Source of the DNA: an uncultured Anaerolineaceae bacterium
Lineage (GTDB): Bacteria > Chloroflexota > Anaerolineae > Anaerolineales > UBA4823
Assembly: GCA_964614855.1 (NCBI GenBank)
Contig: CAZTMX010000001.1
Coordinates: 1 to 54,186, forward strand
Direction: 5' to 3'
Length of the DNA: 54,186 nucleotides
The notes beneath the pieces were generated by a model, which saw nothing but the letters and a program-made list of their open reading frames with translations, was not told where the DNA came from and did not search any database. The position numbers and the translations under genes were made by a program. Every line of letters starts with the position of its first letter. Within the stretch, counting starts at the first letter, position 1. This document shows, piece after piece, positions 5,432 through 53,587 of the stretch.

Positions 5432-7261
5432 TTATTTACCCCAGTTGAAATCCAATTGGAATCTTTCCAGGCTCCAGGCAGGCGTGACCTGGAAGACCAA
5501 CGGTATGCCGTGGAACTCCTGTGGGATGTCCGTTAGAAGTACGCTGTATTCTCCACCCTCAGCAGCCGTCTCCAGGATAGTCCAGCTTTTTCCACCATCG
5601 GTAGAGTAACTGACCAGTGCAGGCTCACTGGCATTTGCCCAACGCAGACCCAGATTATCGCCGTCCTGCACCAGGCTGAGATCCTGGCTGGGCGCAAGAG
5701 TAAGAGTATCTGGAGAGTTTGGATTTTGTGCAATGGCTTGTTCAAGGACTACCTGGTCTTGATGTAAAATCCGCAAGCCGGCTGGTATTTGTTCCGGCAG
5801 GGGCAGCGCAGCATTGAAGTGTTTTATCGTGTGTTCACCTACCAAGGCCAGGTTGATGGGAAGAGGCTGCTCATCAAGCACAACTCCGTTAGCATCTAAG
5901 AATTGCACTCGGTATTCGCTATCCTTCAACAAATCGTCTGCTACAATATCAAGGAAATACGACGGTTCGATATTGATGCCGCCGCTATCCTGGATCGCAC
6001 CGCTCAGGAGCAAGCTGGTCTGTGAGGCCAATGTAACGGGGATAGAATCGCCATAATTAATTTGGGATGACAGCAAGCCTTTATAGGTGAAATCGGAAAT
6101 CCACTCTGGCCCGCAATAGCTCATAATATCTTTGTATATGGAAGGAGATTTGACTGAAAGTGTGCTTGTGTTTAACCCAAATTGGCCGATGCTGCCATCC
6201 GGGTATGGATAACCGGGGTGGACATCCACCACATCACCGCATGGGGAATGCAGGCGGCCGAGATTATGTCCAATCTCGTGAGCTGCGGTGACACCGCCAT
6301 CCAATCCGATCGACAAAGCGTCCGCAAGTCCAACAGAAACGCGCTGCCCATCATAAGTGGGCAAACCGACTTCTCCAATGCCGACATAGCCGCCCTCAAA
6401 CCAGGTAAAGCCTCTATCGTCGTAAACAGGCACCAGGCCGTAGTAGACCTCAGCGTATGGCGAGCCATCTAAGCTTTTCTGTTTGATCACCAGGTTGAGT
6501 AATGCCACCCAATCCCAATAATAATAGAGATCACCGGTGAAATTCAAGGGGGTCGGGCTGACTACCACATCTACTGTTCCGACGGGATAGATGCTTTGCA
6601 GCGAGGGTTTCAGGAAAGATGAAGAAGCAGGGGGGAAGGTTTTATCGTAATACTCATCGGTATAACGAATGGGGATTACCCTGACTCGAAGGTTAGGCAC
6701 AGCGATAAAGATGGCATTGTATCCAAAGAAGTTATTTTCTTCGTTGCTTTCCCAGTATTTGGAACCAGCGTCTACCCAGGCAGTTAAAACGACAGCGCCG
6801 TTCAGCCAATCTGACGGCAGGATGAAATTGAAACTCTTATTGATATCTGCACGCATCGAGTTGGCGTCCAGGGTCAGCGGATAGGCCAGGCTGGCCGTGG
6901 ATACCAGCGGTGAACCCGCCAGTGGCACACCATTGCGGGTAGCGCTTAAGTACACAGTAATGTTCGACAATGCAGCGGCTTCATTCACCCTGGCATACAC
7001 ACGTGCAACAGTTGGACGGTTGCTCACCAGGGTGACTTTATTGTCCAGGCTCTGAATGGCCTGGGTAACCTCAACCGCCGAGATGGTCAGATCCCGGGTT
7101 GGCAAGGGCGCCCGTGCCACAAATGGCAGATAAAAGTAGAGCTCTTGTTCTGTGGCTGTGTCGGGGGTTTGGGCAGATCCGGTGTGATAGCTGCTGCTCA
7201 GTAGCACGATCAGCAGTAAAAATACTGCACGCAATCTGCGTAGTGGTTGGTTAATTTTCAT
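5432..7261 (-). CDS. Secreted metzincin-type zinc metalloprotease
   Basis: N-terminal signal peptide (LLLIVLLSSSYHTGSA). HEIGHNLGRLH (HExxHxxGxxH, nt 6248..6280) is followed by a DIMSY Met-turn-like motif. SD GAGGTG lies upstream. Confidence 0.8.
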   Translation of the reverse strand: MKINQPLRRLRAVFLLLIVLLSSSYHTGSAQTPDTATEQELYFYLPFVARAPLPTRDLTISAVEVTQAIQSLDNKVTLVSNRPTVARVYARVNEAAALSNITVYLSATRNGVPLAGSPLVSTASLAYPLTLDANSMRADINKSFNFILPSDWLNGAVVLTAWVDAGSKYWESNEENNFFGYNAIFIAVPNLRVRVIPIRYTDEYYDKTFPPASSSFLKPSLQSIYPVGTVDVVVSPTPLNFTGDLYYYWDWVALLNLVIKQKSLDGSPYAEVYYGLVPVYDDRGFTWFEGGYVGIGEVGLPTYDGQRVSVGLADALSIGLDGGVTAAHEIGHNLGRLHSPCGDVVDVHPGYPYPDGSIGQFGLNTSTLSVKSPSIYKDIMSYCGPEWISDFTYKGLLSSQINYGDSIPVTLASQTSLLLSGAIQDSGGINIEPSYFLDIVADDLLKDSEYRVQFLDANGVVLDEQPLPINLALVGEHTIKHFNAALPLPEQIPAGLRILHQDQVVLEQAIAQNPNSPDTLTLAPSQDLSLVQDGDNLGLRWANASEPALVSYSTDGGKSWTILETAAEGGEYSVLLTDIPQEFHGIPLVFQVTPAWSLERFQLDFNWGK

Positions 7262-15333: not shown

Positions 15334-16326
15334 ATGAAAATCCTTCTAACCGGTTCTGTGGCTTACGATTACTTGATGACCTTCCCGGGTTATTTTAAGG
15401 ATCACTTTCTGCCAGATCGCCTGGATTCTATCAGCCTCTCCTTTTTGGTTGAGTCGATGATCAGGCTGCGCGGTGGTATTGCACCCAATATCGCCTACAC
15501 CCTGGCTTTGCTGGGTGAAAGGCCTCGCCTTTGGGCGGCGGTTGGTGAAGACTTCGAAGAATACCGCGCCTGGTTGGAGAGCAAAGGAGTGGAGACATCC
15601 GGAGCGCGCGTGATCCCGGGTGTGTATACCGCTTCCTTTTTTGTGAACACCGACCGTGCCAATGCCCAAATCGCCAGTTTTTACCCCGGCGCCATGGCGC
15701 ACGCTGCAGAATTGTCCTTGCTGCAGTTGGGGGATTTCAGACCTGACCTGGTGATGATTTCGCCCAATGATCCTGGCGCTATGATCCAATATGTAAAGGA
15801 ATGCCAGCAGTCAGGCTTGCCTTACATTTACGATCCCAGCCAGCAAATCGTCCGGCTTACCGGAGCGGATCTGCAAGAAGGGATCCAGGGGGCGTATGCC
15901 TTGTTTGTCAACGATTATGAAGCCGCGCTGGTAGAGAAGATGACCGGATGGGATTTGCAGAAAACCCTGGAGGTCAACCCGAACATTATGCTGGTGATTA
16001 CGCGCGGCGAACAGGGGGCGGATATTTATACCGCCAGCCAGGTCGTTCACGTGCCGGTTGCCCCGCCTGAGGAAATTGTGGACCCAACCGGCGTTGGGGA
16101 TGCTTTTCGCGGCGGTTTCCTCACCGGTTTGAGCAACGGGATGGAACTGATCACATGCGGCCGGATGGGCGCCCTGGCGGCTACCTACTGCCTGGAAAGG
16201 CGCGGCCCGCAGGGTCACACCTATTCGGTGCAAGAATTTCTGGCGCGCTACCAGCAAATATTTGGTGACAGTGGAAAACTGGATTTCTTGAATCACACAT
16301 CGCAGGCAAGGGCGACATCTTACTAA
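15334..16326 (+). CDS. PfkB-family carbohydrate/nucleoside kinase (adenosine-kinase-like by context)
   Basis: The C-terminal DPTGVGDAFRGGF motif is typical of PfkB kinases. ATG 15334 (MKILLTGSVAYD) is preferred over the track start at 15280. Confidence 0.75.
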   Translation: MKILLTGSVAYDYLMTFPGYFKDHFLPDRLDSISLSFLVESMIRLRGGIAPNIAYTLALLGERPRLWAAVGEDFEEYRAWLESKGVETSGARVIPGVYTASFFVNTDRANAQIASFYPGAMAHAAELSLLQLGDFRPDLVMISPNDPGAMIQYVKECQQSGLPYIYDPSQQIVRLTGADLQEGIQGAYALFVNDYEAALVEKMTGWDLQKTLEVNPNIMLVITRGEQGADIYTASQVVHVPVAPPEEIVDPTGVGDAFRGGFLTGLSNGMELITCGRMGALAATYCLERRGPQGHTYSVQEFLARYQQIFGDSGKLDFLNHTSQARATSY

Positions 16327-16378
16327 GAAAAACCCGAGCCTGATCATTGATCAAACTAACTTGACCTGGAGAATATAA

Positions 16379-17638
<1,260 letters not shown>

Positions 17639-17653
17639 ACCGTCTTTCGACCT

Positions 17654-17691
17654 AAAAAAACAGGGCTGAGAAATTTTCTCAGCCCTGTTTT
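17654..17691. terminator. Bidirectional rho-independent terminator between convergent ahcY and recA
   Basis: The A7 tract is followed by CAGGGCTGAG (17661..17670), which pairs with CTCAGCCCTG (17678..17687). TTTT follows the stem. Confidence 0.8.
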
Positions 17692-17696
17692 GCTCT

Positions 17697-18776
17697 CTAA
17701 GCTTCGTCTTCGTTTATCTCGCTGTCATCTCCTGCGCTGAATGCCAGGGGTAATTCTCCGCTCAAAGCTTGCTGGCGGATCGCCAATTCGATCTCTTCCG
17801 CCAGGTCGGTGTTCTGCTTTAAGAAATCTTTGGAATTTTCGCGACCCTGACCCAGGCGGATATCACCGTACGAATAGAAGGAGCCGCGCTTGGTGACGAT
17901 ATCCAGGTTGGTTGCCAGGTCCAGCAGGTCGCCGGCTTTTGAGATGCCTTCATTGTACATGATGTCAAACTCGGCTGTACGGAAGGGCGGGGCGACCTTG
18001 TTTTTGACCACGCGTACCCGGGTGCGGCTGCCGATGACATCCGCGCCCAGCTTGATGGACTGGATACGACGTACGTCCAATCGCACAGATGCATAAAATT
18101 TGAGTGCCATACCACCGGTAGTCGTTTCGGGGTTGCCGAATACAACACCGATCTTCTGGCGTAACTGGTTGGTGAAAACTACCGCTGTGTTGGTTTGTTT
18201 AATCACACCGGAGAGCTTGCGTAGCGCCTGCGACATCAGGCGTGCCTGCATCCCCATGGGCGAGTCACCCATATCGCCTTCGATCTCAGCCCGCGGTACC
18301 AATGCTGCCACAGAATCGATTACGATCACTTCCACTGCACCCGAGCGGACAAGCGTTTCTGCAATCTCCAACGCCTGCTCGCCGGTATCCGGTTGTGAGA
18401 TCAACAGGCTCTCCACCTGTACCCCGCAGCGAGCGGCATACATTGGGTCTAGCGCATGCTCCATGTCAATATAGGCGCATGTCCCACCCAACCGCTGGGC
18501 TTCTGCAACGATGTGTTGGCAAATGGTGGTCTTGCCGGAGGATTCCGGTCCGTAAATTTCGGTGATGCGGCCGCGCGGGATGCCTCCCACACCCAGGGCG
18601 ATATCCAGAGATAAAGCGCCGGTGGGGATGGCTTCGACCACCAGGTGGTGCGCTTCGCCCAGGCGCATAATCGAGCCGTCACCGTAGCGTTTTGCGATAT
18701 CGCTGAGCGCTTTGTCCAGGGCTACCTGGCGGTTGCTGTCTATTTCTTGTGCTTGGGGGTTGCTTTTCTTGGCCAT
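17697..18776 (-). CDS. recA: Recombinase RecA
   Basis: GPESSGKTT Walker A plus canonical RecA sequence throughout. ATG ending at 18776 (MAKKSNPQ) has AAGGAG 9 nt upstream. The track extension to 18854 is unlikely. Confidence 0.97.
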
Positions 18777-18923
18777 GCTCGCTTGCTCCTTAAAGCAATT
18801 TCTGGTTGATATGATAGCGGTAAGTACTGGAATTGAATAGGAACTCAGGTGCAAACCTGCCAGCTAAAAATCTGGTCTGAATTAATTTTAGCACAAGCGT
18901 TCTACTTGTCAAGGGTATGCCGG

Positions 18924-20720
18924 TCATTCGATATCCTCAAAACCGGATTTTGCCAGTTGGTAGTACACCTTTTGTTCGGCTAGTAAGCTTTCGTGGGTTC
19001 CCTGTTCGACAATCCGGCCATCTTCAATGACCAGGATGCGGTCTGCGTTGGCGACTGTAGAAAGACGGTGGGCAATGACAAAGGCAGTGCGCCCTTTTAG
19101 CAAACGAGCCAGGGCAGCCTGGATCACCCTTTCGGTCTGTGTGTCCACACTGGATGTGGCTTCATCCAGGATCAGGATGCGGGGGTCAGCCAGCAAAGCC
19201 CTGGCAAAAGAGATCAGCTGTCTTTGACCCACAGATAGCACCACGCCTCCTTCTTCCACGGAGGTTTGATACCCTTTTGGCAAACGCATAATGAAATCAT
19301 GGGCGCCAACCGCTTGTGCTGCCTGTAGGACTTCTTCATCGCTGGCATCCAGGCGTCCGAAACGGATGTTTTCCATCACACTACCGGAAAACAGAAATGG
19401 GTCCTGTAAGACGATGCCCATCTGGCTGCGCAGGCTGTTTTGGGTCACCTTGCGCAGATCAAATCCGTCAATTTTTATAGCGCCTTGCGTAGGATCGTGG
19501 AAACGGCTTACCAATTTGACCAGGGTGGATTTTCCTGCACCAGTCCTACCCACCAGGGCGATGGTTTCTCCTGGTTGTACGTTCAGGTTGATCTCTGACA
19601 GGACAGGAGTGGGATCGTCCGAATAGTGGAAGGACATTTGATCGAATTGTACTTCCCCTCGAAGATACGGGAGATCCACAGCATTGGGGTCATCGACTAC
19701 CTCAGCAGGTGTATCCATTAGCGCCAGGATGCGCTCACCGCTGGCCATGGTGGACTGGAAGGCATCGTAGCGCTGGCTGAGATCTCGGATAGGCTCGAAA
19801 ATTCGCTCGATATATAAAATGAAGGCGATGAGCAAACCCGGGGTAATGGCGGCTGCAGAATCTGTGCTCAACACTGCACGCCCGCCCACCCACACTACCA
19901 GGGCAATGGAAATAGCGCCCATCAAGTCAAAAGATGCCGGGAAAGCTGCGGCTATGCGAGCAGCTTTCAGGCTTGTTGCTTTGTTGTTCTGATTCACCTG
20001 GTCGCGAAAGTCTGTGTAATTCTTTTCCTGGCGAGAAAACGCCTGAACGACCCGCACGCCGTTGATATTCTCGGCCAGAACGGAATTGACCCAACTGATC
20101 GCCTGGCGCACCAATCTGTAGTTCCGCCTGGCTCTGCGGCGAAACGCAACGGTGATACCTATCATCAGGGGTAATACACTAAAGGCGATCAGTGACAACC
20201 TGGTATCCAGCACTAGCATTGTGATTAGAGTACCGATCACAACAAACAAATCCCTGACAATGGCCAATAATGCCCAGGTGATAAACTCGCGCAAGACCTC
20301 TACATCATTGATTACACGGGTGATGATGCGCCCGACGCTGTAGCGGTTATAGAAACTAAGCGAAAGCTTTTGCAGATGGGCAAACAACTGCTCACGTACA
20401 TCGAAAATGATGCCCTGCCCGACGCGTGCCATGATATTTACGCGTGAGAAAATCGATACCCATTGCACGGATATGGCAAGGATATACAGAAGCACCGACT
20501 GGAGCAAGATATCCATGGAGCCGTTGCGTAAACCAGAGTCGACCGCCACTTTTAACAAATATGGGCCGGCAATGGCAGCGACAGAATTTAACAACATCAA
20601 CAAGATGGAGAACCACAAGCTTGCCTTATAAGGGATCAGGAATTTAACCAGGCGAGCAATGGTTTGTTTATCAAAACCCTTCATCGGTGCGTCATCCAGA
20701 GGGGCGGGGCTGCTGGTCAT
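18924..20720 (-). CDS. ABC exporter, fused permease/ATPase (heterodimer partner B)
   Basis: Six-TM type I exporter domain, Walker A GRTGAGKST, signature LSVGQRQ, and Walker B ILILDEATS. The start overlaps the upstream gene's stop by 4 nt. Confidence 0.9.
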   Translation of the reverse strand: MTSSPAPLDDAPMKGFDKQTIARLVKFLIPYKASLWFSILLMLLNSVAAIAGPYLLKVAVDSGLRNGSMDILLQSVLLYILAISVQWVSIFSRVNIMARVGQGIIFDVREQLFAHLQKLSLSFYNRYSVGRIITRVINDVEVLREFITWALLAIVRDLFVVIGTLITMLVLDTRLSLIAFSVLPLMIGITVAFRRRARRNYRLVRQAISWVNSVLAENINGVRVVQAFSRQEKNYTDFRDQVNQNNKATSLKAARIAAAFPASFDLMGAISIALVVWVGGRAVLSTDSAAAITPGLLIAFILYIERIFEPIRDLSQRYDAFQSTMASGERILALMDTPAEVVDDPNAVDLPYLRGEVQFDQMSFHYSDDPTPVLSEINLNVQPGETIALVGRTGAGKSTLVKLVSRFHDPTQGAIKIDGFDLRKVTQNSLRSQMGIVLQDPFLFSGSVMENIRFGRLDASDEEVLQAAQAVGAHDFIMRLPKGYQTSVEEGGVVLSVGQRQLISFARALLADPRILILDEATSSVDTQTERVIQAALARLLKGRTAFVIAHRLSTVANADRILVIEDGRIVEQGTHESLLAEQKVYYQLAKSGFEDIE

Positions 20721-36356: not shown

Positions 36357-38426
36357 ATGATGAAACTTATGCGATTCTTGATTATCCTCTCCCTGATCAT
36401 CTCAGTCTCAGCAACGTTCCCGGGCGCTGCCAGGGCAGATGATCCAACACCAGGGGCTCCGGTGGGCGGCGGAATCTCGGTGTACTTACCGACAATTTTC
36501 ACCAATCGGTATTACACGGTCAGCGGGCAGGTCACTGGGACCGAAGGGGAACCACTCTCCGGGGTCAGCATAACCAGCGGCAACGGAGAGACAACCTTTA
36601 CAGATCAGAACGGTGTCTATGCCCTCAAAGTGCTCATGGGTGAAACCGACCTGGCAGCGCAAAAGGACGGCTTTGCGTTCTCACCCACAGCCTTGGAACT
36701 TAACGTCACCAGCACCCTGGTTGGGCAAGATTTTTCTGCCATGGCTGCTTGCGTGGAAGGTCTGCAGAATACCAGCTTCGAAACTTGGGACTCTTGGTGG
36801 ATCACGGGCGGAGGAGCTGATTATACGAATATTAACAGCCATACCGGTGGAGTATCGATGCTGACCGGGATTCTCTCCTCGATAGACAATACTTACAACT
36901 GGTCGACTGTTACCACACCTTTGATCGCCATCCCCGCGGCAGCTACCTCGGTGACTCTACGCACCTGGTTTTATACCCTCAGCACAGATACAATCCTGCA
37001 GGTCTCCGATGCTCCCAGCGCAGGTCTATTTGGTGAAACGATCGCTGCATACGATGCCCAGTATGTGATGATCCTGGACGGCAGCAACAACCTGCTGGAG
37101 ACCCTGATGTGGGTGCAGGCTGATGCAAATACCTGGACAAACCACGTCTTCGACCTGACAAAGTGGGCTGGCGAATCGATCAAGATTCAAATTGGCACCT
37201 ACAATGACGGCGAGGACGGTGTCACAGCTATGTTTGTGGATGATGTCACGCTGGAGATATGCGATACAGTCCTACCTCCTCCTCCTCCTCCCGCTATTTG
37301 CTACAACGGTCTGTACAACAGCGGGTTTGAGTACGTAGGTGATTGGAAAATCCCGTTGACGGCGTATCCTGCCAACTACTCATCCACATACTCTTATGCT
37401 GGTGTCACATCCATGCGTACCGGTATTCCGCTGGATAAGCTGGTCAATGTATACAGCTACTCGGATGCCTGGCAGACGGTTACCATCCCGGCGGACGCAA
37501 CCAGCGCCTGGTTAAATATCAAGCTGCTGCCGATGAGCGAAGAGCCGGAGGTGGCTACCAGCCTGGCTGCCATTGAGCGGGATGTGGATCCAGGCGCGCC
37601 AATGGCAGGCAGCACCTGGGGCGACTCGGAGCTGGCACTGGATGCAGCATATATCCTGGTGCTCAACCCTTACACACAAACCATCATTAAGACCATCTGG
37701 TACAAGGAGAACCGCAACTCCACCTACTGGCTGGACAAAAGCTGGGATTTGATGGAGTTTGCCGGCAAGACCATCCGTATCCAGTTCGGCGTCTACAATG
37801 ACGGATACAATGGGCAATCGGTGATGTATGTCGATGAAGCCTACGTGGATATCTGCACCGGCGCACTCCCGCCTCCGCCTCCTCCTCCACCACCACCTCT
37901 ATGCGAAGAGCGTATTGATAACAATAGCTTCGAAGTCACCTCCGACTGGTATATCCCGCCGACAGCTTTCTCTGCCGGTTACTCGACCTACCGGGCACAC
38001 TGGGGTGTACGATCGATGCGCACCGGGATCAAGTATCTCTCGCAGAATAAGTTCAGCTACTCGGACTTCGGACAGGTGGTCACCGTCCCATGGTGGGCCG
38101 ATACAGCCTCCCTGAGTATGTACCTGTTCAATTCCAGCAGCGAGCCGTATTCGGTGGCTTTGGCAGACCAGCCCAACATGGCTGAATTTGGCGATGTCAT
38201 TCTCTACGGCGATATCCAGTACCTGTTGGTGTTAGATCTCTACGGCAACTGGATCGATACCCTGCTCTGGCAGCGGACAAATGAGCAATATTGGAAGTAT
38301 GTCTCCGTTGATCTATCCAAGTATGCGGGGCACACGATCAAGCTGCAGTGGGGTACTTACAATGACGGTTGGGGCGGTGTCACATCCATGTTTGTGGACG
38401 ATGTCTCGCTGATAGCCTGCCCATAA
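36357..38426 (+). CDS. Secreted protein: CarboxypepD_reg-like domain plus three tandem beta-sandwich (CBM/galactose-binding-like) repeats joined by poly-Pro
   Basis: Signal peptide LSLIISVSATFPGAARA. YTVSGQVTG...DQNGVYAL marks the regulatory-like domain. Three ~175-190-aa repeats each start C..N.SFE and end YNDG....MFVDDV.L..C. Confidence 0.7.
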   Translation: MMKLMRFLIILSLIISVSATFPGAARADDPTPGAPVGGGISVYLPTIFTNRYYTVSGQVTGTEGEPLSGVSITSGNGETTFTDQNGVYALKVLMGETDLAAQKDGFAFSPTALELNVTSTLVGQDFSAMAACVEGLQNTSFETWDSWWITGGGADYTNINSHTGGVSMLTGILSSIDNTYNWSTVTTPLIAIPAAATSVTLRTWFYTLSTDTILQVSDAPSAGLFGETIAAYDAQYVMILDGSNNLLETLMWVQADANTWTNHVFDLTKWAGESIKIQIGTYNDGEDGVTAMFVDDVTLEICDTVLPPPPPPAICYNGLYNSGFEYVGDWKIPLTAYPANYSSTYSYAGVTSMRTGIPLDKLVNVYSYSDAWQTVTIPADATSAWLNIKLLPMSEEPEVATSLAAIERDVDPGAPMAGSTWGDSELALDAAYILVLNPYTQTIIKTIWYKENRNSTYWLDKSWDLMEFAGKTIRIQFGVYNDGYNGQSVMYVDEAYVDICTGALPPPPPPPPPPLCEERIDNNSFEVTSDWYIPPTAFSAGYSTYRAHWGVRSMRTGIKYLSQNKFSYSDFGQVVTVPWWADTASLSMYLFNSSSEPYSVALADQPNMAEFGDVILYGDIQYLLVLDLYGNWIDTLLWQRTNEQYWKYVSVDLSKYAGHTIKLQWGTYNDGWGGVTSMFVDDVSLIACP
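37275..37292 (+). repeat. (CCT)5CCC proline-codon microsatellite (inter-domain linker 1)
   Basis: Direct reading: encodes PPPPPP between repeats 1 and 2. Confidence 0.9.
37869..37898 (+). repeat. Ten-codon proline tract (CCG/CCT/CCA) (inter-domain linker 2)
   Basis: Direct reading: encodes P10 between repeats 2 and 3. Confidence 0.9.
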
Positions 38427-42974: not shown

Positions 42975-43148
42975 GTGAAGACCTACATTGCAATCCTCAT
43001 CACCATCATCTTGCTCATTGGTTCGACATCGCCCGCCCTTGCAGCCGCAAAGGCGCGTGGGGACTTTGGGCTGGGCAATGTCAACCAGAATTTTGTCGGC
43101 GTCGAAATCCCGCCACCCTGGGACTTGCCGCCAGGACTGCTACACTAA
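42975..43148 (+). CDS. Small putative secreted peptide (57 aa)
   Basis: GTG follows AAGGAG (42961..42966) after an 8-nt spacer. The signal-like N-terminus IAILITIILLIGSTSPALA-AAK is followed by ~35 aa (GDFGLGNVNQNFVGVEIPPPWDLPPGLLH). No homology recognised. Confidence 0.45.
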   Translation: MKTYIAILITIILLIGSTSPALAAAKARGDFGLGNVNQNFVGVEIPPPWDLPPGLLH

Positions 43149-43346
43149 TATCGCCATCTATTTCAAAATAACTCCATCCGATATGGGGGCGCCTTTGCGG
43201 GTAGGATTTGAACTCGGCGGATGGAGCTTATCTAAAATGAATAATTACCGCACCATCAGTGTGGCTCACCCAGGCTGGAAAGTGAAAACTCACTACCAGC
43301 CTTTTCTATCCATTCTCGCTGCCAACTCGTGTCCGGATACCCGGAA

Positions 43347-43375
43347 TTGCTTTTTCCCCTTCTTTTATCTATAAT
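43347..43375 (+). promoter_or_regulatory. Sigma70-like promoter (TTGCTT-17-TATAAT) upstream of the SIR2-like gene
   Basis: TTGCTT at 43347..43352, a 17-nt spacer, and TATAAT at 43370..43375, ~120 nt upstream of the SD-led GTG at 43495. Confidence 0.5.
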
Positions 43376-43494
43376 ATTTTTAATTAACCTTGTCATATGA
43401 AGCTTTATACTCATCATCTCTTTTTTGATCAGCTCTTTGTGTGCCTGGCAGATTTGCCAATCCAACCTGGTACCCGTTCAGGAGGCATCCAACT

Positions 43495-44871
43495 GTGGAA
43501 ATCCGTGATGAATTGACCGCCCTGGCGCGGCAGATGCTGGAGCGCAGGGAAAAAGAGGCCCAGCCGCTGATCCTCTTCCTGGGGCGCGGCTGTGCAGATG
43601 CCGCCGGCGTACCCGGCAGCATCGAAATCGCCCGCCAGTTGTTTCGCGATAACGACCTGGCGCGCCAGTACCTTGAGCCTGCAGGTGATGCATCTGACGA
43701 ACAGGCGCTGCTGCACGCATTCAATGAGTTTGTGGCGGATATGACCCCCGGCCAGCGCCACCGTATGCTGCAGTCTTTCTATGCCGGGCTGCCGGTGCCC
43801 GCCTTTTACCAGGACCTGGCGCTGTTGATTAAAGCCGGGTTCTTCCGCCGTGTGCTCACCACCAGCATCGATGCCCTGCTAGAACAGGCGCTCAACGGTG
43901 CAGGCCTGTATATCGATAAGGATTACCAGGTGATCAGCCTGGGCAGCGCGCAGAAAACCCAGCCTCCACGAGATTACCAGCAGACTGCCTTTAGGATCAG
44001 CATCCTCAAGCTGCACGGCGACCTGGCAGCGCAGCAGACCTACCTTACACCGGAAGAAATCCTGGATGCCCTGGAGCCGCAGCGTGCCTTTATCAAGGGC
44101 GAGCTTTCCGGCGACCTGGTGATGGCGGGCTACGAGTTCGAAAGCGAGCCGCTAAACACCTGGCTGAACCGTGTGCCCGGGCAGCTTTGGTGGGTGAACC
44201 CGGAACCCCTGGACCCGACACATATTGCCCGGCTCCAGGATGTGCGCAGCCTGCGCATCATATCCGGCAGCCAGGCTTATCCCGAAGAGTTTTTCGGCCA
44301 GCTGGTATACCTGCTGCTGCGCCGACCGCTCAAGACCTCGCTTTCAGCCGAGCCGATCCAGGCGTATTCACAGGCGCAGCAAGGTCTGAGCGATGTCGAT
44401 CAGCTTTTGGAAAGCCTGGAGGAGAGCGACTTCTCTGATACGGATTACCTCAAGGACCAGTTGTACCGCAGCCGGGCGCTGCTGCAAAGCCTGCAGCAAT
44501 CCTCCGCCCCGGGGGAACGCAACCTGCAGCTGCAGGCGCAGATCGATTACCAGCGCCAGCGTGTGACCGAGCTGGAAGACCAGCTGCGCAGCCTGGACGG
44601 CACCCGGCGGCATGTGCTGCAGCTGCTGCGCGAAATGCAGCAGGAGGTCGCCAAGGCCAGCACAGACCCTAACCAGGTCGCCTTTTTCCAGAGCCAGGTG
44701 CGCGCCATCCGCCGGGAATACCGGCGCGAGACACCCGACCAGACCATCATTTCAGCAGCCATCAGCGCCACGCTGATCCTGGTGGAGCGGCTGGGCGCAG
44801 AAAACATCGATCCGCAGCTGCTGCAAGAGCTGGCAGCTTTTGCACCCAGTACGCTGAGCCGGAGGTCGTGA
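43495..44871 (+). CDS. SIR2-like (SIR2_2-type) domain protein with C-terminal coiled-coil-like tail
   Basis: The ordered motifs are LILFLGRGCADAAGVPG (GxG NAD loop), VLTTSIDALLE (TQNID/TTNYD-equivalent), ILKLHGDL (catalytic His, nt 44014..44016) and LVMAGYEFESEP. The last ~170 aa are a Q/L/R/E-rich helical tail. GTG 43495 follows AGGAGG (43480..43485) after 9 nt. The track start GTG 43441 lacks an SD. Confidence 0.8.
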   Translation: MEIRDELTALARQMLERREKEAQPLILFLGRGCADAAGVPGSIEIARQLFRDNDLARQYLEPAGDASDEQALLHAFNEFVADMTPGQRHRMLQSFYAGLPVPAFYQDLALLIKAGFFRRVLTTSIDALLEQALNGAGLYIDKDYQVISLGSAQKTQPPRDYQQTAFRISILKLHGDLAAQQTYLTPEEILDALEPQRAFIKGELSGDLVMAGYEFESEPLNTWLNRVPGQLWWVNPEPLDPTHIARLQDVRSLRIISGSQAYPEEFFGQLVYLLLRRPLKTSLSAEPIQAYSQAQQGLSDVDQLLESLEESDFSDTDYLKDQLYRSRALLQSLQQSSAPGERNLQLQAQIDYQRQRVTELEDQLRSLDGTRRHVLQLLREMQQEVAKASTDPNQVAFFQSQVRAIRREYRRETPDQTIISAAISATLILVERLGAENIDPQLLQELAAFAPSTLSRRS

Positions 44872-46004
44872 TGGCACAGGTGATTTCGCTGATGGTGCTG
44901 CCAACCGGCTCGGCTGAAGCGCTGCCGCAAATCCTGATGGAGCGCTCGGGTTTGTGGCGCGATATGTCGCCCTCGCTGGATATCCGCCTGTCCGTGCGCT
45001 CGCAGGCGCTGCGCGAAAACATGGACACCCTGCTGGGTGAGCTGATGGCGCAGATGGAGCACAACGCCCACCCCAGCCTGGCGGTTTTGAAAGCAGCCTT
45101 CAAAGGACATTACCGGGTGATCGTCCCAGCAGGCGTGCAGCAGGCGCTGGCAGATGCCTTGAGCCAATCCGCCCCCGGCACCCCGCCGCTGCTCAAGCTG
45201 CACATCCACCCGGCCGCGGAGTGGATCCCCTGGGAGCTGCTGCACGATGGCAAGGATTTCCTGGGGTTAAATTTCCAGATCGCCCGCCTGCCCATCTTAC
45301 CCAACAGCCCTGATCTTTCCTTTTATGAACCGCGCCGCGTCGACCAGGTGTGCAGCCTGCTGGCAAAAAACGCCTTTGATGAACCCTTGGCGCCCCAGCT
45401 TGAGCAAGCCTGGCAGGAGACCTTTTCTGGGCTGCTGCCGTCAGGCGTCCAGCTCACCCGTTACCCTGGCGAAGGCGCGCCAGCCCCAGGATATCCCAAT
45501 GTGGAGGACCTGATCCGGGCGGGCAGCAGCAGTGATATCCTGCACATCACCTGCCACGGCCACCTGCAGGACAGGTTCGACAGGTATTTTTGGTCGCTAG
45601 ACCACCTGAGCCCGCTGATCTATGATTACAAGATCAATGCTGCGCTTGTAAGCGATCTGCCGTTGGCGCAAAACCCGCTTGTTTTTGGCAATGCCTGCGG
45701 TTCGCCAGCAGCTGCGGCTGCAGACAGCAGCGGGATGCTTTCACCCGGGTTTGGCTCGCTGTTCTTCGCCCAGGGTGCGGTCGGGTTTATTGGAACCTTT
45801 GCGCCCATCACCCAGGCGCTGGCGGCGCCTTTTGCGCGTAAATTTTATGAATACTTGCTGGCTGAGGGGCTGCCGCTGGGGCGCGCCTTGCTGGCAGCCA
45901 AACGCTATTTTGCCGAAAATGGGGAAGCCGATCCGTCTTTTCTGTATTACTGCCTGTACGGACCGGCTGAAACCAGCTTTTACGCCGCGCCAGAGGACGG
46001 TTAA
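44871..46004 (+). CDS. CHAT-domain (caspase-fold) protease
   Basis: EWIPWELL, DILHITCHGH (His-Gly, His codon 45555..45557), PLVFGNACGS (Cys codon 45696..45698), AQGAVGFIGTFAPI and LYYCLYGP follow the CHAT pattern in order. ATG 44871 shares one nucleotide with the upstream TGA, and GGAGG lies 5 nt upstream. Confidence 0.85.
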   Translation: MAQVISLMVLPTGSAEALPQILMERSGLWRDMSPSLDIRLSVRSQALRENMDTLLGELMAQMEHNAHPSLAVLKAAFKGHYRVIVPAGVQQALADALSQSAPGTPPLLKLHIHPAAEWIPWELLHDGKDFLGLNFQIARLPILPNSPDLSFYEPRRVDQVCSLLAKNAFDEPLAPQLEQAWQETFSGLLPSGVQLTRYPGEGAPAPGYPNVEDLIRAGSSSDILHITCHGHLQDRFDRYFWSLDHLSPLIYDYKINAALVSDLPLAQNPLVFGNACGSPAAAAADSSGMLSPGFGSLFFAQGAVGFIGTFAPITQALAAPFARKFYEYLLAEGLPLGRALLAAKRYFAENGEADPSFLYYCLYGPAETSFYAAPEDG

Positions 46005-46071
46005 GCCACGTATAAAATTGCCAGCATCACTGGCATGCGCATGCCGATTGGCGCTGCGCCCTGCATCGCGG

Positions 46072-49688: not shown

Positions 49689-50594
49689 ATGAGTGTACGT
49701 TGCTGGCTGTACAACGGAAATGAGTTAAAACAATTGGATCTGGGGCAGGTGGACAGCCTGGACGCCTCGACAGCGCTGATCCCTGGCGGGGCATACACCA
49801 CGTTTCGCACCTTCCAGGGCACCAAGACACTCTTACTCGAAGACCATTTCCTGCGCCTGGAGGAGACCTCCCACCTGGCAGGCCAACCCGTGCAGATCGA
49901 GCGCCTGGCTGTGCGGGGGGCGTTGCGCCGGGTATTAGCTGAAGCCCAAAGGCTTTTCGCTGTAGATTCGGCGCCGGATGCCCAGGAGGAAACCCCCACA
50001 CAGCCTGGGATCCCCTCCTCCACCCCATTCGACCTGCGCCTGCGGATGACGCTGGATCTGGAACAGCGACCCGGCGAGCTGTACCTGGCAGCCGAGCCGC
50101 TGCACACCCCGCCGCAAGAAGCTTACGCACACGGTGTGCGGGTGGTGATCCGTAGAATGCAGCGCATCAACCCCAAGGCCAAGTTGACGCGTTTTATCCA
50201 GCGCTCGGACCCGGTGCGCCAGTCCCTGCCTGCGGGTGTCAACGAAGCCGTGATGGTCAACGAGCAGGATGAGCTGCTAGAAGGGCTGAGCAGCAATTTT
50301 TATGCGATCCTGTATGGAGAGATTTGGACAGCGGAAGCAGGCGTGCTATCGGGGATCACACGCAGCATGGTCATCGAATGCGCCCGCCGGCTGGATATCC
50401 CGATGCGCTACCAGCCCGCCAGGTTGAGCGATGTGCCTCGCATACAGGAAGCCTTTATCACCTCTGCCAGCCGGGCGGTGCTGCCGCTGTGCCAGATAGA
50501 GGATACGACCTTGCCGCAGACACCCGGCGCGCTGACCCGCCGCCTGATGCAGGCTTATGTGGGTCTGTTGGAAGAAAGATTGGAAAAGATTTAA
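49689..50594 (+). CDS. Aminotransferase class IV family protein (BCAT / aminodeoxychorismate-lyase-like)
   Basis: The fold-type IV pattern includes FRTFQG, EGLSSNFY and VLSGITRSMVIE. SD GGAGGAG upstream. Confidence 0.8.
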   Translation: MSVRCWLYNGNELKQLDLGQVDSLDASTALIPGGAYTTFRTFQGTKTLLLEDHFLRLEETSHLAGQPVQIERLAVRGALRRVLAEAQRLFAVDSAPDAQEETPTQPGIPSSTPFDLRLRMTLDLEQRPGELYLAAEPLHTPPQEAYAHGVRVVIRRMQRINPKAKLTRFIQRSDPVRQSLPAGVNEAVMVNEQDELLEGLSSNFYAILYGEIWTAEAGVLSGITRSMVIECARRLDIPMRYQPARLSDVPRIQEAFITSASRAVLPLCQIEDTTLPQTPGALTRRLMQAYVGLLEERLEKI

Positions 50595-53587
50595 GCTGCG
50601 GTACAGGCGCGCAGCGCCTTGCGTGCCACCTCTAACAAAGTTTCCGTGCGGTCCCCATCATTGGGGTACATCCCGGTGCCGCAAGAAAGCCCCAGCTTGA
50701 TTTCCTTGCCTGCGCACACAAAGGGTGTCTGGAATTGCTCCGCCAGCCTGCCGGTGATGATCTCCAGCGCCTTGGCATGCGGCAGCCTTTCAATGATCAC
50801 CCCAAATTCGTTTTCCCCCAGGCGTGCCAGGAAATCATCCTGGCGTAAGTTCCGGTGGATGCGCCCGGCAGCTTTTTGGATGCACTGGTGGTAAATTTCC
50901 TTGCCCGCGCTTTTTTCCAGGTTCGCCAGCCCCTGGATCTGCATGATCAAGAGGCCAAATTGCTCCACCCGGCTTGAGGCATCCGAAATGGCTTTGCTCA
51001 GGTTTCCTGAGAATACCTGGCCTTCCGGCAGCCCGGTCAGGTGATCCACCGGCGCCGTCGATCTCCCCCGCTGGGCTTCAAAATCCACCTTTTTCACCAG
51101 CACCAGGTTGTGGTTGCCTGCCAGGGGGCGGACAGGCAGCGAGAGGGCTTCGATAGCGATCAGCGCGCCGGAGTGGTGCTGGATATGGGTTTCCGAGATT
51201 GGCGAAGCCTGCCAGTTTTGCCGGGTGTAATCCAGGCTGAAATTCTGCAAATTCATCCCCAGCATGATCCCCAGCGGCAAACCGCTGAGCTGCTGCGCCT
51301 GGTAATTGGCGGCTTTGATCTGGCCTTCGCCGTCCACCAGGAACATGGCATTGTTTGCATCCACCAGGCGGTACACGTGTGGGCAACCAGTGCCGTATCT
51401 CTCGCAGCCCTGGCGGGAGAAGCTGTCCAGGAAGCGCAGCTGCGGTCCAGCCGGTTGGGCCGCAGGATGCTGTGCAGCTGATAGCTGGGCGGCAGGGTGT
51501 TGGGCAGCAGGGTGTTGGGCAGCTGGGAGCTGGATCTTTTCCGGTTGGGTCTGGTAGGTGCGCCGGTAATGCTGGAAATCCTCCACCGCCTGCTGCACCA
51601 GGTTCGCCTCGTCTATCCAAAACGCCCAATCCAGGGCATAATCGATATTCTCCAGCTCTTCATCAATGGCGAATAGCAGCTGTCCTGGCGAGCGGCTGGT
51701 TGGAAGCAGGGATACTTTCTGGTGCAAATACTCCAGGTAGTGGTTGCCAAAAATCTCTTGCAGCGCGGATTTTACCTCTTTTTGGCTGGCCAGGCGCTCC
51801 ATGGCGAATTGGCGAATTAGGGGTTTAAAGGCATAGCGCCCGTATCCCAGGCGCACCAGCAGCGATTGGTCGCTGAAGAAAGTCAGCGTATCCTGGCTGG
51901 TATGGCAAATTTGCTCGGCAGCCTGGGGGGTAAAACTGCAAGGAAATATCGAGAGCGACTCGAGCTGTCTTTGGTATGGGTCATCCAGCGCTTCCCACAC
52001 GCTGGTCAGAATTTTCTTCATACTCCGCTGGCGAGCGGGTACATCATGCAAGGAAGTAGAAAGCACCACCAGGTCCTTATGCAGCGAATCGACGATGTTG
52101 GGCAGCGAGAGCTCGTGCAGCCGGTCGGCAGCCAGCTCCAGCGCCAGCGGGATGCCGTCCACCGCCTGGCACAGCTCCAGCACGTAAAACAGCCAGGAGG
52201 GGTTCTGCGTGAGGTCCTGGCGGCTGTGGCGGGCGCGCTTTAGAAACAGCTGGACTGCTGGCGATTTGAGCGCCTGGCTGTCGCTCGGGTCCAACGGGTA
52301 AGGCAGCCCTTCCAGGGTCAGCGGGTTTGCAGCCAGCAGGTTTAGGCGCTGGCGCGAAGTGACGATGATCTTGATATGCAGCGCATTTTGCAGCAGATCC
52401 ATCAGCAGGTGGGTGGAATTGTGCATCTCGTCGAACTGGTCGACAAGCAGGATGCAGCGCTTGCTTTCCAGGAAGCGCCCGATCTGCATCCTTGGATTGG
52501 CCAAGCTGATGGTCAGCCCCAGCGAGCGCGCCAGCGCCGGGTAGAACAGCTCCTCGGAGTGCACGCCGTCCAGGGAGAGATAGTACAGACCGTCCTGGAA
52601 TTCTTTCACCTGGCGTTGGGCGGCTTCGATCGCCAGGCGCGATTTGCCCACGCCCGGCAGGCCGTTGATCGAGATCAGTTGGCAGCTTGGGTTGGCGAGG
52701 CAGCGCGCCAGGTAGTCCAGCTCGTCTTCCCGGCCGATAAATTCGGTCATCGGGCGGGGCAAGCCGTCCGGCGCCTGGATTTCGCCTTCATCGCCGAGGA
52801 TGACCGGTTTGCCCAGGCGGATGCGCTCGTACAACCCAACGGTCTCCGCCGAGGGTTCCACGCCCAGTTCCTGCTGCAGCATGCGCACACACAGCTGGTA
52901 TTGTTCCAGCGCGGCAGAGCGGCGCCCGCTGAGCGCCAGCAGCTCCATCAAGCGCCGGTAAGCCTGTTCTTCCAGCGGGGCATGCTTGACATACAACCAG
53001 GCGTATTTTTGCATCGTCTCCCAGTCGCCCTGGGTTTTGTAGATCTCGCTCAGGTGGTCGAGGATTTCCAGCAGGTAGCGTTTAAATTGCTCGCGATGGA
53101 AAAAAGCCCATTCCTGGAAGGACTGGCTGTTCTCCACGTACAGCCCGGTCAGGAAATCCTGGCGGTAGAGATCCACTGCTTCTTGCAGCTGCTGGGCGCA
53201 GGTGGGGCAGGTATCCAGGTTCTTGTGATCGTGGACGCTGTTGGCTTGCAGATGCGCTTTGAAGGTATCGGCATCCACCCAATAAGAGGCCTTTGGGTTG
53301 AGCTGGATGGATTCATCGCTGACCAGCAGCAAGGGTTGTGAAGTACGCCGGTCTTCGATGGCATTGCGCACCCCCAACAGCGCCTGGCGCAGGTTGGCGC
53401 GGCTCATGATTTCAGGGCGGTCGGGCCAGAACATTTCTGCCAGCAGCTCGCGACTGATGGGGCGTTTGGCTTCCATCACCAGGTACGCCAACAGGGCGCG
53501 CTCTTTATCGGTGCGAAATTTGCGCGTGATAGATTGGTTGTCCAGGTTTACCTGGAAATCGCCGAGCAAAAAAAAGGATAATCTCAC
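50591..53587 (-). CDS. Multidomain regulator: SARP/BTAD winged-helix + NB-ARC (STAND) ATPase + helical region + PAS-like + degenerate GGDEF
   Basis: The gene has a GTG start. The N-terminal FFLLGDFQV...ERALLAYL, together with the BTAD helices, is SARP-like. The P-loop is GLPGVGKS (nt 52640..52663) and Walker B is ILLVDQFD. PAS-like sequence: LVDANNAMFLVDGEGQIKAAN. The C-terminal DHLTGLP...RQDDFLARLGENEFGVII is GGDEF-like. Confidence 0.85.
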   Translation of the reverse strand: MRLSFFLLGDFQVNLDNQSITRKFRTDKERALLAYLVMEAKRPISRELLAEMFWPDRPEIMSRANLRQALLGVRNAIEDRRTSQPLLLVSDESIQLNPKASYWVDADTFKAHLQANSVHDHKNLDTCPTCAQQLQEAVDLYRQDFLTGLYVENSQSFQEWAFFHREQFKRYLLEILDHLSEIYKTQGDWETMQKYAWLYVKHAPLEEQAYRRLMELLALSGRRSAALEQYQLCVRMLQQELGVEPSAETVGLYERIRLGKPVILGDEGEIQAPDGLPRPMTEFIGREDELDYLARCLANPSCQLISINGLPGVGKSRLAIEAAQRQVKEFQDGLYYLSLDGVHSEELFYPALARSLGLTISLANPRMQIGRFLESKRCILLVDQFDEMHNSTHLLMDLLQNALHIKIIVTSRQRLNLLAANPLTLEGLPYPLDPSDSQALKSPAVQLFLKRARHSRQDLTQNPSWLFYVLELCQAVDGIPLALELAADRLHELSLPNIVDSLHKDLVVLSTSLHDVPARQRSMKKILTSVWEALDDPYQRQLESLSIFPCSFTPQAAEQICHTSQDTLTFFSDQSLLVRLGYGRYAFKPLIRQFAMERLASQKEVKSALQEIFGNHYLEYLHQKVSLLPTSRSPGQLLFAIDEELENIDYALDWAFWIDEANLVQQAVEDFQHYRRTYQTQPEKIQLPAAQHPAAQHPAAQLSAAQHPAAQPAGPQLRFLDSFSRQGCERYGTGCPHVYRLVDANNAMFLVDGEGQIKAANYQAQQLSGLPLGIMLGMNLQNFSLDYTRQNWQASPISETHIQHHSGALIAIEALSLPVRPLAGNHNLVLVKKVDFEAQRGRSTAPVDHLTGLPEGQVFSGNLSKAISDASSRVEQFGLLIMQIQGLANLEKSAGKEIYHQCIQKAAGRIHRNLRQDDFLARLGENEFGVIIERLPHAKALEIITGRLAEQFQTPFVCAGKEIKLGLSCGTGMYPNDGDRTETLLEVARKALRACTAA
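51449..51523 (-). repeat. Five tandem 15-nt coding repeats (AAQHP-type pentapeptides)
   Basis: Two perfect copies of AGGGTGTTGGGCAGC occupy 51494..51523, with three diverged copies upstream. Minus-strand translation reads AAQHP AAQHP AAQLS AAQHP AAQPA. Confidence 0.9.

Follow-up and report, generated by a model that had tools for sequence, protein, structure and literature searches.

Our data firmly show that a two-gene operon in a 54,186-nucleotide stretch of DNA from an uncultured Anaerolineaceae bacterium (contig CAZTMX010000001.1 of assembly GCA_964614855.1, positions 1 to 54,186; hereafter "the window") encodes a SIR2-fold protein that bears a family-specific helical tail (gene 1) and a CHAT protease with an intact catalytic dyad (gene 2). 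They show as firmly that this SIR2-CHAT operon is real, conserved across phyla and co-evolving, and that the window carries its most reduced form. A role in conflict or programmed death is likely. We tentatively favor a reading in which the pair is a self-contained, protease-gated suicide or defense module that targets nicotinamide adenine dinucleotide (NAD), with a confidence that falls a little short of even; complex formation, cleavage and its site, NADase activity, the trigger and the cell-death outcome are the parts of this reading that we infer.

The ORF listing of the window gives two long co-directional open reading frames (ORFs) in the region 43347-46004. The first product matches Pfam SIR2_2 (PF13289; 38.9 bits against a cutoff of 24.5, E = 1.2e-9), the family that a sequence-only reading of this DNA had proposed. 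This match and the CHAT match of gene 2 are far beyond chance, and homologs of both proteins reach E = 1e-140 to 1e-290; a search of NCBIfam profiles returned no match for either protein. The predicted fold agrees with the profile. An AlphaFold 2 (AF2) model built on 30 homologs (predicted local distance difference test, pLDDT, 79.8; predicted template modeling score, pTM, 0.80) found its best Foldseek matches in the PDB among the SIR2 domains of DSR2 and KomC (E ~1e-8), and the SIR2 family profile aligns to the SPARSA-type Sir2 (8jkz/8in8) over the GAG loop, TTN.D and HGD motifs. The motifs quoted in the sequence-only reading are all present in the translations, with one correction: TTSID is not the canonical SIR2 motif, since the family consensus is TTN[IF]D and its Asn is changed here. 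The window protein keeps the intact Gly-rich loop LFLGRGCADAAGVPG, Asp126 and His174, while Ser124 replaces Asn, leaving incomplete the full catalytic set of DSR2-, ThsA- and SPARSA-type enzymes (Gly loop, Asn and Asp of TTNxD, His of HG).

The helical tail that had been noted behind the SIR2 domain is also present. It spans about 160 residues and has family-specific motifs (LQAQIDYQRRQIxxLEDQLRxL, PNQxIISAA and a C-terminal APSxxxR), and its comparison with Pfam gave only sub-threshold matches and no family. The pTM of 0.80 suggests that the tail is packed in a defined way on the SIR2 domain. Two segments of the model have low confidence. The loop of residues 152-166 directly precedes the strand bearing the catalytic His and may be a candidate gating loop. 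The linker between SIR2 domain and tail, residues 277-300, has a large insertion in the database cluster P0160 (alignment A2) and is a candidate cleavage region, should cleavage occur. A tail-only profile (A5), meant to reveal such tails on other effectors, was searched against a 5.8-billion-protein set and returned six short fragments only, its prefilter probably swamped by coiled-coil words; the one that we inspected (P0181) comes from a SIR2 gene cut off by the end of its contig, adjoining CHAT and a further gene, G3, described below.

The product of gene 2 matches Pfam CHAT (PF12770; 43.8 bits against a cutoff of 24, E = 2.9e-11) and Peptidase_C25 (E = 1e-5). Its AF2 model (pLDDT 90.6, pTM 0.92) finds its best Foldseek matches in Csx29 (TPR-CHAT), separase, the CHAT anti-sigma factor DdvA and SAVED-CHAT, with a Foldseek probability of 1.00 for Csx29, separase and SAVED-CHAT. 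The catalytic "CH" preceding Gly is found in all 112 homologs in which the motif could be located, and the catalytic Cys in 114 of 115. Profile, fold and the invariance of His229 and Cys276 therefore agree with the CHAT assignment and intact His/Cys dyad first read from the sequence, and the codons then given for SIR2 His174, CHAT His229 and CHAT Cys276 are the right ones. The N-terminal domain may be a sensor or a partner-binding surface. One relative from a metagenome (P0253, 617 residues) joins a family-type CHAT to an extra N-terminal Peptidase_C14 domain, giving two caspase-fold domains in one polypeptide.

By exact look-up and from GTDB genomes and JGI metagenomes, we assembled 57 non-redundant loci. 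The homologs found number at least 144 for CHAT and at least 60 for SIR2, with at least 15 SIR2/CHAT pairs on contigs of matching size. Wherever 1.3 kb or more of upstream sequence is available (37 loci), a tail-bearing SIR2 gene lies directly upstream of the CHAT gene; at L009 the SIR2 gene is present and frameshifted. At every locus inspected the stop and start codons overlap, by one nucleotide (TGATG or TAATG) or by four (ATGA or GTGA), and the overlap is common to Chloroflexota, Acidobacteriota and Actinomycetota. Pairwise identities of the SIR2 and CHAT proteins correlate across 27 loci (Spearman 0.81, Pearson 0.93), showing that the two proteins co-evolve. The window has the family arrangement, in which a tail-bearing SIR2 gene directly precedes and overlaps a family-specific CHAT gene. 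Its one-nucleotide TGA/ATG overlap and the GGAGG five nucleotides upstream are confirmed as first described, and the translational coupling proposed from them is borne out by the retention of the overlap across phyla.

Recurrence of the pair in unrelated genomes is likewise supported, by the adjacency at all 37 loci and by a patchy distribution over four bacterial phyla. All hosts are metagenome-assembled genomes (MAGs): Chloroflexota (Anaerolinea and others), Acidobacteriota (Pyrinomonadaceae, Bryobacteraceae, Thermoanaerobaculia) and Actinomycetota (Gaiella, Solirubrobacteraceae), plus one Planctomycetaceae fragment. The family is rare. A HMMER scan of 1.84 billion cluster representatives returned 179 clusters at E <= 1e-30; about 100 family clusters were counted at 50% identity clustering, fragments included, with full-length matches down to ~1e-42, and from ~1e-38 onward the matches are longer multidomain CHAT proteins that align only from about profile position 40. 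Near-identical copies of the window proteins occur in other samples (P0001, P0121).

The longest ORF for gene 1 runs from GTG 43441 (43441..44871). We consider GTG 43495 the probable true start because of its spacing from an AGGAGG, because P0121, a database cluster 100% identical to gene 1, has the same length (458 residues), and because homolog N-termini align there. The promoter that had been claimed upstream holds up in part: the -10 element TATAAT (43370-43375) is perfect, whereas the -35 element TTGCTT (43347-43352) matches the consensus at three of six positions, and the promoter scanner made no call because it has fewer than four of six matches. A hairpin directly upstream could insulate the operon from upstream transcription. 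The 860-bp spacer between the preceding LysM gene and gene 1 is AT-rich (GC 0.39-0.49) and contains a small ORF (42976..43149, + strand) with a GTG start and AAAGGAG 8 nt upstream, encoding a 57-residue peptide with a signal-peptide-like N-terminus (VKTYIAILITIILLIGSTSPALAAAKA...); the spacer of the syntenic locus L001 is only ~230 bp. Features of the operon and of related loci are collected in Table 1.

Table 1. Positions of operon features and of associated genes; coordinates are those of the window unless a locus is named.
Feature	Position	Strand	Basis or remark
GC-rich short hairpin, then T-rich run	43332..43345	+	Terminator-like scan; directly 5' of promoter-like site
Promoter-like site, TTGCTT-17 nt-TATAAT	43347..43375	+	Read in sequence
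AGGAGG ribosome-binding site	43480..43485	+	Sequence; 9 nt before GTG 43495
Gene 1, SIR2-like protein with C-terminal helical domain, 458 residues, GTG start	43495..44871	+	ORF, Pfam SIR2_2
SIR2 domain, Rossmann-type NAD-binding, ~residues 20-275	43552..44319	+	AF2 pLDDT mostly 80-93, Foldseek, profile alignment
Ser124 codon AGC, at catalytic Asn position of TTN[IF]D	43864..43866	+	Alignment A2, motif census
Low-confidence, length-variable loop, residues 152-166	43948..43992	+	pLDDT <50; variable columns in A2
His174 codon CAC of KLHGD, SIR2 catalytic His	44014..44016	+	Sequence, A2, census
Disordered, poorly conserved linker, residues 277-300	44323..44394	+	pLDDT 30-50; length varies
C-terminal helical domain, residues 301-458	44395..44868	+	Alignment A2, AF2; five helices, ~301-455 in model
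GGAGG ribosome-binding site for gene 2, within gene 1	44861..44865	+	Sequence; 5 nt before ATG 44871
TGATG stop/start overlap	44869..44873	+	TGA 44869-44871 and ATG 44871-44873 share A44871
Gene 2, CHAT (caspase-fold) protease, 377 residues	44871..46004	+	Pfam CHAT, AF2 model, Foldseek
N-terminal beta/helical domain, family-specific, residues 1-100	44871..45170	+	Alignment A1, AF2; conserved G27, W29
Caspase-like catalytic core, residues 105-365	45183..45965	+	Pfam envelope 105-351, AF2
Catalytic His229 codon, motif TCHG	45555..45557	+	Invariant in A1
Catalytic Cys276 codon, motif FGNAC	45696..45698	+	Invariant in A1
Hairpin and T-run between gene 2 and convergent fumarase genes	46019..46035	-	Terminator-like scan; 3' operon boundary
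InhA-like MAM/CarboxypepD_reg protein	36357..38426; L001 14361-15563; L002 1-1849; L007 13822-15516; L068 963-3113	+ (window)	
U335	L002 6316-7341; L065 4413-5501; L066 118-1113; L068 4362-5369; also L007, L017		
His to Tyr (KLYGD) SIR2 genes	L010, L012, L018, L020, L031, L034, L043, L044, L048		Mainly Actinomycetota

Across the family the pair usually has further partners. A gene that we call G3 (386-418 residues, sometimes overlapping CHAT) follows CHAT in 36 of the 43 loci with room downstream. Pfam gave nothing above threshold for G3, and its profile found nothing among PDB sequences even at E = 10. Sub-threshold Pfam matches occur in 8 of 13 members (Transglut_core in 5, DUF553 in 3), and an invariant pattern, A-N-C-x-D-G ... 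P-G-H-A ... E-T-T, runs through the family, with Cys in 40 of 40 and His in 37 of 37 members of a dyad census. Because of these weak matches and the invariant NCxDG...PGHA...E pattern, we regard G3 as a probable transglutaminase-like Cys-His peptidase.

The seven loci that lack G3 are exactly a Chloroflexota clade (the window, L001, L002, L007, L065, L066 and L068), in which the usual order is U335, an astacin-like metalloprotease, SIR2 and CHAT. The astacin-like protein has a PPC domain and is without a signal peptide, as expected of a cytoplasmic protein; its stop overlaps the SIR2 start at L068, and in acidobacterial loci its gene comes after G3, together with a YscW-like gene. U335 is a conserved cytoplasmic family of ~335 residues with near-invariant motifs (ISFQRTLRIPDDGxxYPLPPxLGxFP, PMYQxEAxW and QPWLDG) and no match in Pfam. 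It is always encoded just upstream of the family's astacin-like gene, in Chloroflexota and in a Solirubrobacteraceae MAG. A profile-profile comparison of U335 with G3 found no relationship. Of the 21 loci that extend 4 kb or more in both directions, 12 have an astacin, and the window and L001 alone lack G3 as well as astacin. When the window was searched by tblastn at E values up to 10, nothing resembling G3, astacin, U335 or the YscW-like gene turned up. The two-gene form is a derived, reduced state, in which the window and L001 have lost G3, astacin and U335, and with them the variable effector-like genes that flank the core elsewhere. The statement in the sequence-only reading that the two genes occur alone is accordingly correct for this sublineage and wrong for the family as a whole.

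Other genes beside the core vary from locus to locus. Trypsin-NucA fusions of up to 863 residues lie there in seven loci (tblastn), and we also found PLD-family proteins, LCAT/PGAP1-like α/β-hydrolases and a zincin-like protein of ~640 residues. One SIR2 member (P0174) contains an inserted EAD1 effector-associated domain (E = 4e-14). Kaur et al (2020; PMC7159879) describe EAD1 as an adaptor that joins effectors to conflict-system cores, and the trypsin-NucA architecture as a conflict system switched on by proteolysis. Within the window itself, 36 kb from the pair, the ORF 5432..7261 (- strand) encodes a 609-residue zincin-like protein with weak Reprolysin and CARDB matches; it is 26% identical to the ~640-residue protein (G0) that adjoins SIR2-CHAT-G3 in five acidobacterial loci.

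Loss of so many partners raises the question of whether the window copy still functions. A decaying, non-functional remnant, with G3, astacin and U335 gone and the SIR2 site weakened, would account for the isolation of the window and L001 among the 21 loci, for the absence of traces of the lost genes in the window and for the Asn-to-Ser change. We think this very improbable. Both ORFs are full-length, and the dyad, Gly loop, His, tail motifs and coupled junction are intact; near-identical copies exist in other samples, as noted above; and Ser at the Asn position is also found in loci with full operons (L032, L047, L065 and L066). L001 keeps the two-gene layout at ~60% identity, which indicates long purifying selection after gene loss.

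In the gated-effector reading that we favor, SIR2 and CHAT would be translated in 1:1 coupling and would probably form a complex, in which the SIR2 domain would be kept inactive by its own helical tail, by bound CHAT, or by both. A trigger would be sensed by the CHAT N-terminal domain or the SIR2 tail, after which the Cys276/His229 dyad would cut the SIR2 protein in a disordered segment, either the linker of residues 277-300 or the loop of residues 152-166. The SIR2 domain, freed or oligomerized, would then consume NAD+ and so arrest the cell. This model fits because of the probably ancestral catalytic set, the two-domain-plus-linker structure of the AF2 model, and the precedents of Canu, gasdermin and Craspase systems. 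It is also supported by the structural relatives of the CHAT protein, as Csx29, separase and SAVED-CHAT act by specific partner cleavage, and the two-gene form has been maintained, the window and L001 proteins being 59-64% identical with ORFs and dyad intact. More broadly, a conflict role is consistent with the domain types, the structural relatives, the EAD1 domain of one member, the swappable effector-like neighbors and the sparse, patchy distribution.

Several observations, here and in the gene neighborhoods described below, weigh against this reading. In ThsA, DSR2 and sirtuins the Asn is needed for NAD+ cleavage, and in DSR2, ThsA and SPARSA-type enzymes its mutation abolishes NADase activity; Ser124 stands at this position in the window, and across the family the position is Asn in ~80% and Ser in ~20%. 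Ser might be tolerated there, perhaps, because it recurs in the otherwise complete operons named above. In a census of 40 loci, Asn is paired with His in 22, with Tyr in 9 and with Gln in 1, Ser with His in 7 (the window, with TTSID, included) and Ala with Leu in 1; the catalytic His is thus replaced by Tyr, Phe, Leu or Gln in 11 of the 40, about a quarter. The Asn + Tyr group is mainly actinobacterial, and in most of its members the Gly loop is degenerate (FLIGDLCGERAG). Throughout, the CHAT and G3 dyads are invariant while the SIR2 residues drift, which suggests that SIR2 catalysis is dispensable in many lineages. The two-gene form may moreover lack a sensor or activator, since most of the family has a third or fourth protease. 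The proposal in the sequence-only reading that the protease activates the SIR2 module is thus supported in part: Ser124 and the loss of His leave other readings, and activation is perhaps not the logic of the whole family.

A somewhat unlikely alternative that we nevertheless take seriously reverses the roles, with CHAT as the executioner or signal-transducing enzyme and the SIR2-like protein as a non-catalytic or weakly catalytic NAD(+)/nucleotide sensor, or as a securin-like chaperone and inhibitor acting through its tail. The contrast between invariant protease dyads and a drifting SIR2 site is what this arrangement would predict, and the window itself is of the Ser + His type. In the KLYGD clade the SIR2 gene, its tail and the CHAT overlap are all kept despite the lost His, so that protein, tail and coupling outlast the catalytic residues. 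Loci of this clade carry a trypsin-NucA fusion or an LCAT-like lipase beside the core, and His-less loci in general tend to have an adjoining nuclease or lipase gene. There are precedents in separase, a structural neighbor of the CHAT protein that is controlled by a tightly bound inhibitor-chaperone, and in type IV Thoeris, where an NAD-linked input switches on a caspase-like effector (10.1101/2024.10.24.620036). However, all four SIR2 elements (Gly loop, Asn, Asp and His) are retained in the majority state, and this full set is probably ancestral. We know of no SIR2 domain shown to act as a pure sensor. The EAD1 domain of P0174 would also mark the SIR2 protein as an effector under the scheme of Kaur et al.

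The genomic setting is a further point against a mobile defense module. Upstream of the pair lie genes for an HD phosphohydrolase, a lipid acyltransferase, a CDP-alcohol transferase, an InhA-like secreted protein, a glycosyltransferase, glutamate racemase, a histidine phosphatase and a secreted LysM protein; downstream are fumarase α/β, a TPR/ST7-like protein, a class IV aminotransferase and a BTAD-NB-ARC-GGDEF regulator. This context is neither a defense island nor a mobile element. The window has no tRNAs (tRNA scan) and no Rfam matches, and the GC content of the pair (0.59-0.64) is the same as that of its flanks. The pair adjoins fumarase in the window, L001, L065, L066 and L007. Relative to the window, SIR2 is 50-64% and CHAT 50-59% identical in the fumarase-linked loci and L002, fumarase is 74-81% identical and the TPR protein 30-44%; the locus is therefore syntenic between genomes whose fumarases are only 74-81% identical. 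In Chloroflexota this pattern points to vertical inheritance at an ordinary rate rather than to defense-island turnover. We found no relative of the CHAT protein among IMG/VR viral contigs, and among 72,556 plasmids there was no CHAT match and only domain-level SIR2 matches at 27-30% identity. A defense-island setting was thus looked for and not found, and the stable housekeeping locus without a mobile-element link argues against a conflict role. Elsewhere in the family, the Pyrinomonadaceae locus L005 has phage-type integrase, HTH_17 excisionase-like and Rep_1-like genes (15656-19175) downstream of the operon at a distance of 4-8 kb; no other family member showed a mobile-element signature nearby.

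These data bear on the possibility that the pair is not a conflict system at all, which we judge quite improbable. It would instead be a lineage-resident physiological regulatory pair, for example one through which filamentous Chloroflexota adjust proteolysis to their NAD status, to stress or to differentiation, and in it the SIR2 protein would be a deacylase or ADP-ribosyltransferase acting on the protease or its substrates. The position beside fumarase, the TPR protein and the aminotransferase is stable in five Chloroflexota contigs, the pair shares the GC content of its flanks and evolves at an ordinary rate, and there are no mobile-element marks, tRNAs or defense genes nearby, all as this explanation would have it. 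It fits poorly with the SIR2_2 clade and the best structural matches, which are defense NADases and not sirtuin deacylases, with the patchy spread over four phyla and ~100 clusters among 1.84 billion representatives, and with the swappable effector-like neighbors and the EAD1 domain of one member.

Some neighbors of the pair were considered as components. The BTAD-NB-ARC-GGDEF gene (50591..53587, - strand, 998 residues) lies 4.6 kb downstream and encodes a winged-helix Trans_reg_C domain, a BTAD domain, an NB-ARC/AAA_16 STAND ATPase and a C-terminal GGDEF diguanylate cyclase. The sequence-only reading had seen no NTPase among the flanking genes, which is true of the immediate flanks and overlooks this STAND-type gene. 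We rejected a link to the pair as coincidence: no other locus has such a gene except L065, whose 1633-residue BTAD-AAA_16-TPR protein is on the opposite side of the pair and is only 34% identical over the BTAD region. The LysM gene was rejected as an operon component as well, as its product has a signal peptide and it is found with the pair at no locus but the window and L001. Chloroflexota loci of otherwise differing context share a secreted InhA-like MAM/CarboxypepD_reg repeat protein, encoded at most a few kb from the pair.

We compared the pair with known systems. PADLOC v2.0.0 (2023 database) returned no match for CHAT and only SIR2-domain-level matches for gene 1 (PDC-S65 and Aga SIR2); the PDC-S65 match (38.8 bits) covers model positions 17-203 of 592, the SIR2 domain only and short of full length, and the Aga/pAgo matches likewise cover the SIR2 domain alone. 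PADLOC v2 has no model that fits the CHAT, G3, astacin or U335 proteins. A search of the full-text literature, with subscription-only papers outside its scope, found no description of a SIR2-CHAT operon. Together these results uphold the earlier view that the pair is not a named system.

The closest relatives of gene 1 by fold and profile are the defense SIR2 NADases, namely DSR2, the SIR2 of SIR2-HerA, the SPARSA SIR2-APAZ and KomC (Kongming), with which its GxG, TTN..D and HGD motifs align. These proteins work with a C-terminal sensor (DSR2), HerA, pAgo/APAZ or KomA/B partners, none of which is in the window, whereas the window protein has Ser for Asn, a family-specific helical tail and a protease partner. 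DSR2 and DSR1 are single proteins of ~1000 residues with a C-terminal sensor; gene 1 encodes 458 residues, and its SIR2 domain alone aligns (TM-score against DSR2 ~0.4 query-normalized, ~0.2 target-normalized). No HerA, APAZ or pAgo gene adjoins the pair, its neighbors being the LysM protein and fumarase. For Thoeris (types I and IV), we found no TIR, SLOG or Macro domain in either protein, in the 12 ORFs at 31.5-53.6 kb or in the zincin-like ORF at 5.4-7.3 kb, and matches to the ThsA SIR2 domain are very weak and occur only in relatives of the pair. Type IV Thoeris resembles the pair as a two-gene module of an NAD-utilizing domain and a caspase-family protease, and differs in that its TIR makes N7-cADPR and its caspase is the effector, the NAD domain of the window being a SIR2, which is not known to make signals.

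On the protease side, the best structural matches (Csx29 of the type III-E Craspase, SAVED-CHAT and separase) share the His/Cys dyad geometry of gene 2 and are substrate-specific proteases that a bound partner restrains. Unlike Csx29 and SAVED-CHAT, gene 2 comes without TPR or SAVED domains, Cas7-11 or a cyclase, and encodes only 377 residues with an N-terminal domain of its own. There are no cas or cyclase genes among the annotated neighbors; a CRISPR array was not specifically searched for. Nor does a gasdermin or a metallo-beta-lactamase (MBL)-fold pro-nuclease adjoin the pair in the window or in the 57 related loci. Canu (CanABC), in which a caspase-family protease activates an adjacent pro-enzyme, is an experimental precedent for the gated logic, and with the trypsin-gated pro-nucleases of Hachiman, AVAST and Lamassu it shares a protease beside a disordered-loop pro-enzyme in a small operon without an NTPase, cleavage that switches on the effector being proposed or shown (PMC12799240). 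The Canu-type effector is an MBL-fold nuclease and not a SIR2 protein, and its protease is MALT1-like with an Ig domain and not this CHAT. Canu is also found in defense islands and is experimentally validated, whereas the SIR2-CHAT pair lies outside islands and is known here from its sequence.

The multi-peptidase systems of Kaur, Burroughs, Iyer and Aravind (2020/2021; PMC7159879, PMC8195603) are similar in having a constant core beside variable effectors, and several peptidases that suggest a cascade. Trypsin-NucA fusions, as in their "System 3", adjoin the core in seven of our related loci, EAD1 occurs in one member, and the taxa are often filamentous or multicellular. The SIR2-CHAT operon differs in that no MoxR, STAND or GTPase NTPase core adjoins it. 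The SIR2-CHAT-transglutaminase-like triad is not among the systems described, and the term "SIR2" occurs 0 and 1 times in the two papers (PMC7159879 and PMC8195603, respectively). The window proteins have no EAD match in Pfam and no adjoining NTPase; the family touches the EAD-coupled conflict network through the EAD1 domain of P0174. Thus the logic of a caspase-family protease joined to an NAD-targeting domain or pro-enzyme is known, and this architecture looks new.

A broader view of the family, unlikely in our judgment, combines several of these threads. The engine of the family would be a protease switch and not an NADase, and the SIR2-like protein a securin-like, NAD(+)/nucleotide-sensing regulator that restrains a caspase-fold protease and has repeatedly become a pseudoenzyme. 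The two-gene form of Anaerolineae-type Chloroflexota would then be a domesticated, stably inherited chromosomal cell-fate module and not a gene of mobile phage-defense islands.

If the protease does gate the SIR2 protein, the immune pro-enzymes activated by caspase-family proteases (gasdermins, Csx30 and pro-nucleases) would come to include NADases, extending a theme shared with eukaryotic cell death. The window copy would be the easiest to reconstitute, as it is the smallest form found, with two genes, no accessory protease and no adjacent effector. The family also offers a natural experiment in which an immune-type enzyme has been kept as a pseudoenzyme in several clades while two to three protease sites stayed invariant. 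Its position exposes a blind spot in discovery, since searches guided by defense islands would miss systems that reside at housekeeping loci in uncultured soil and sediment lineages.

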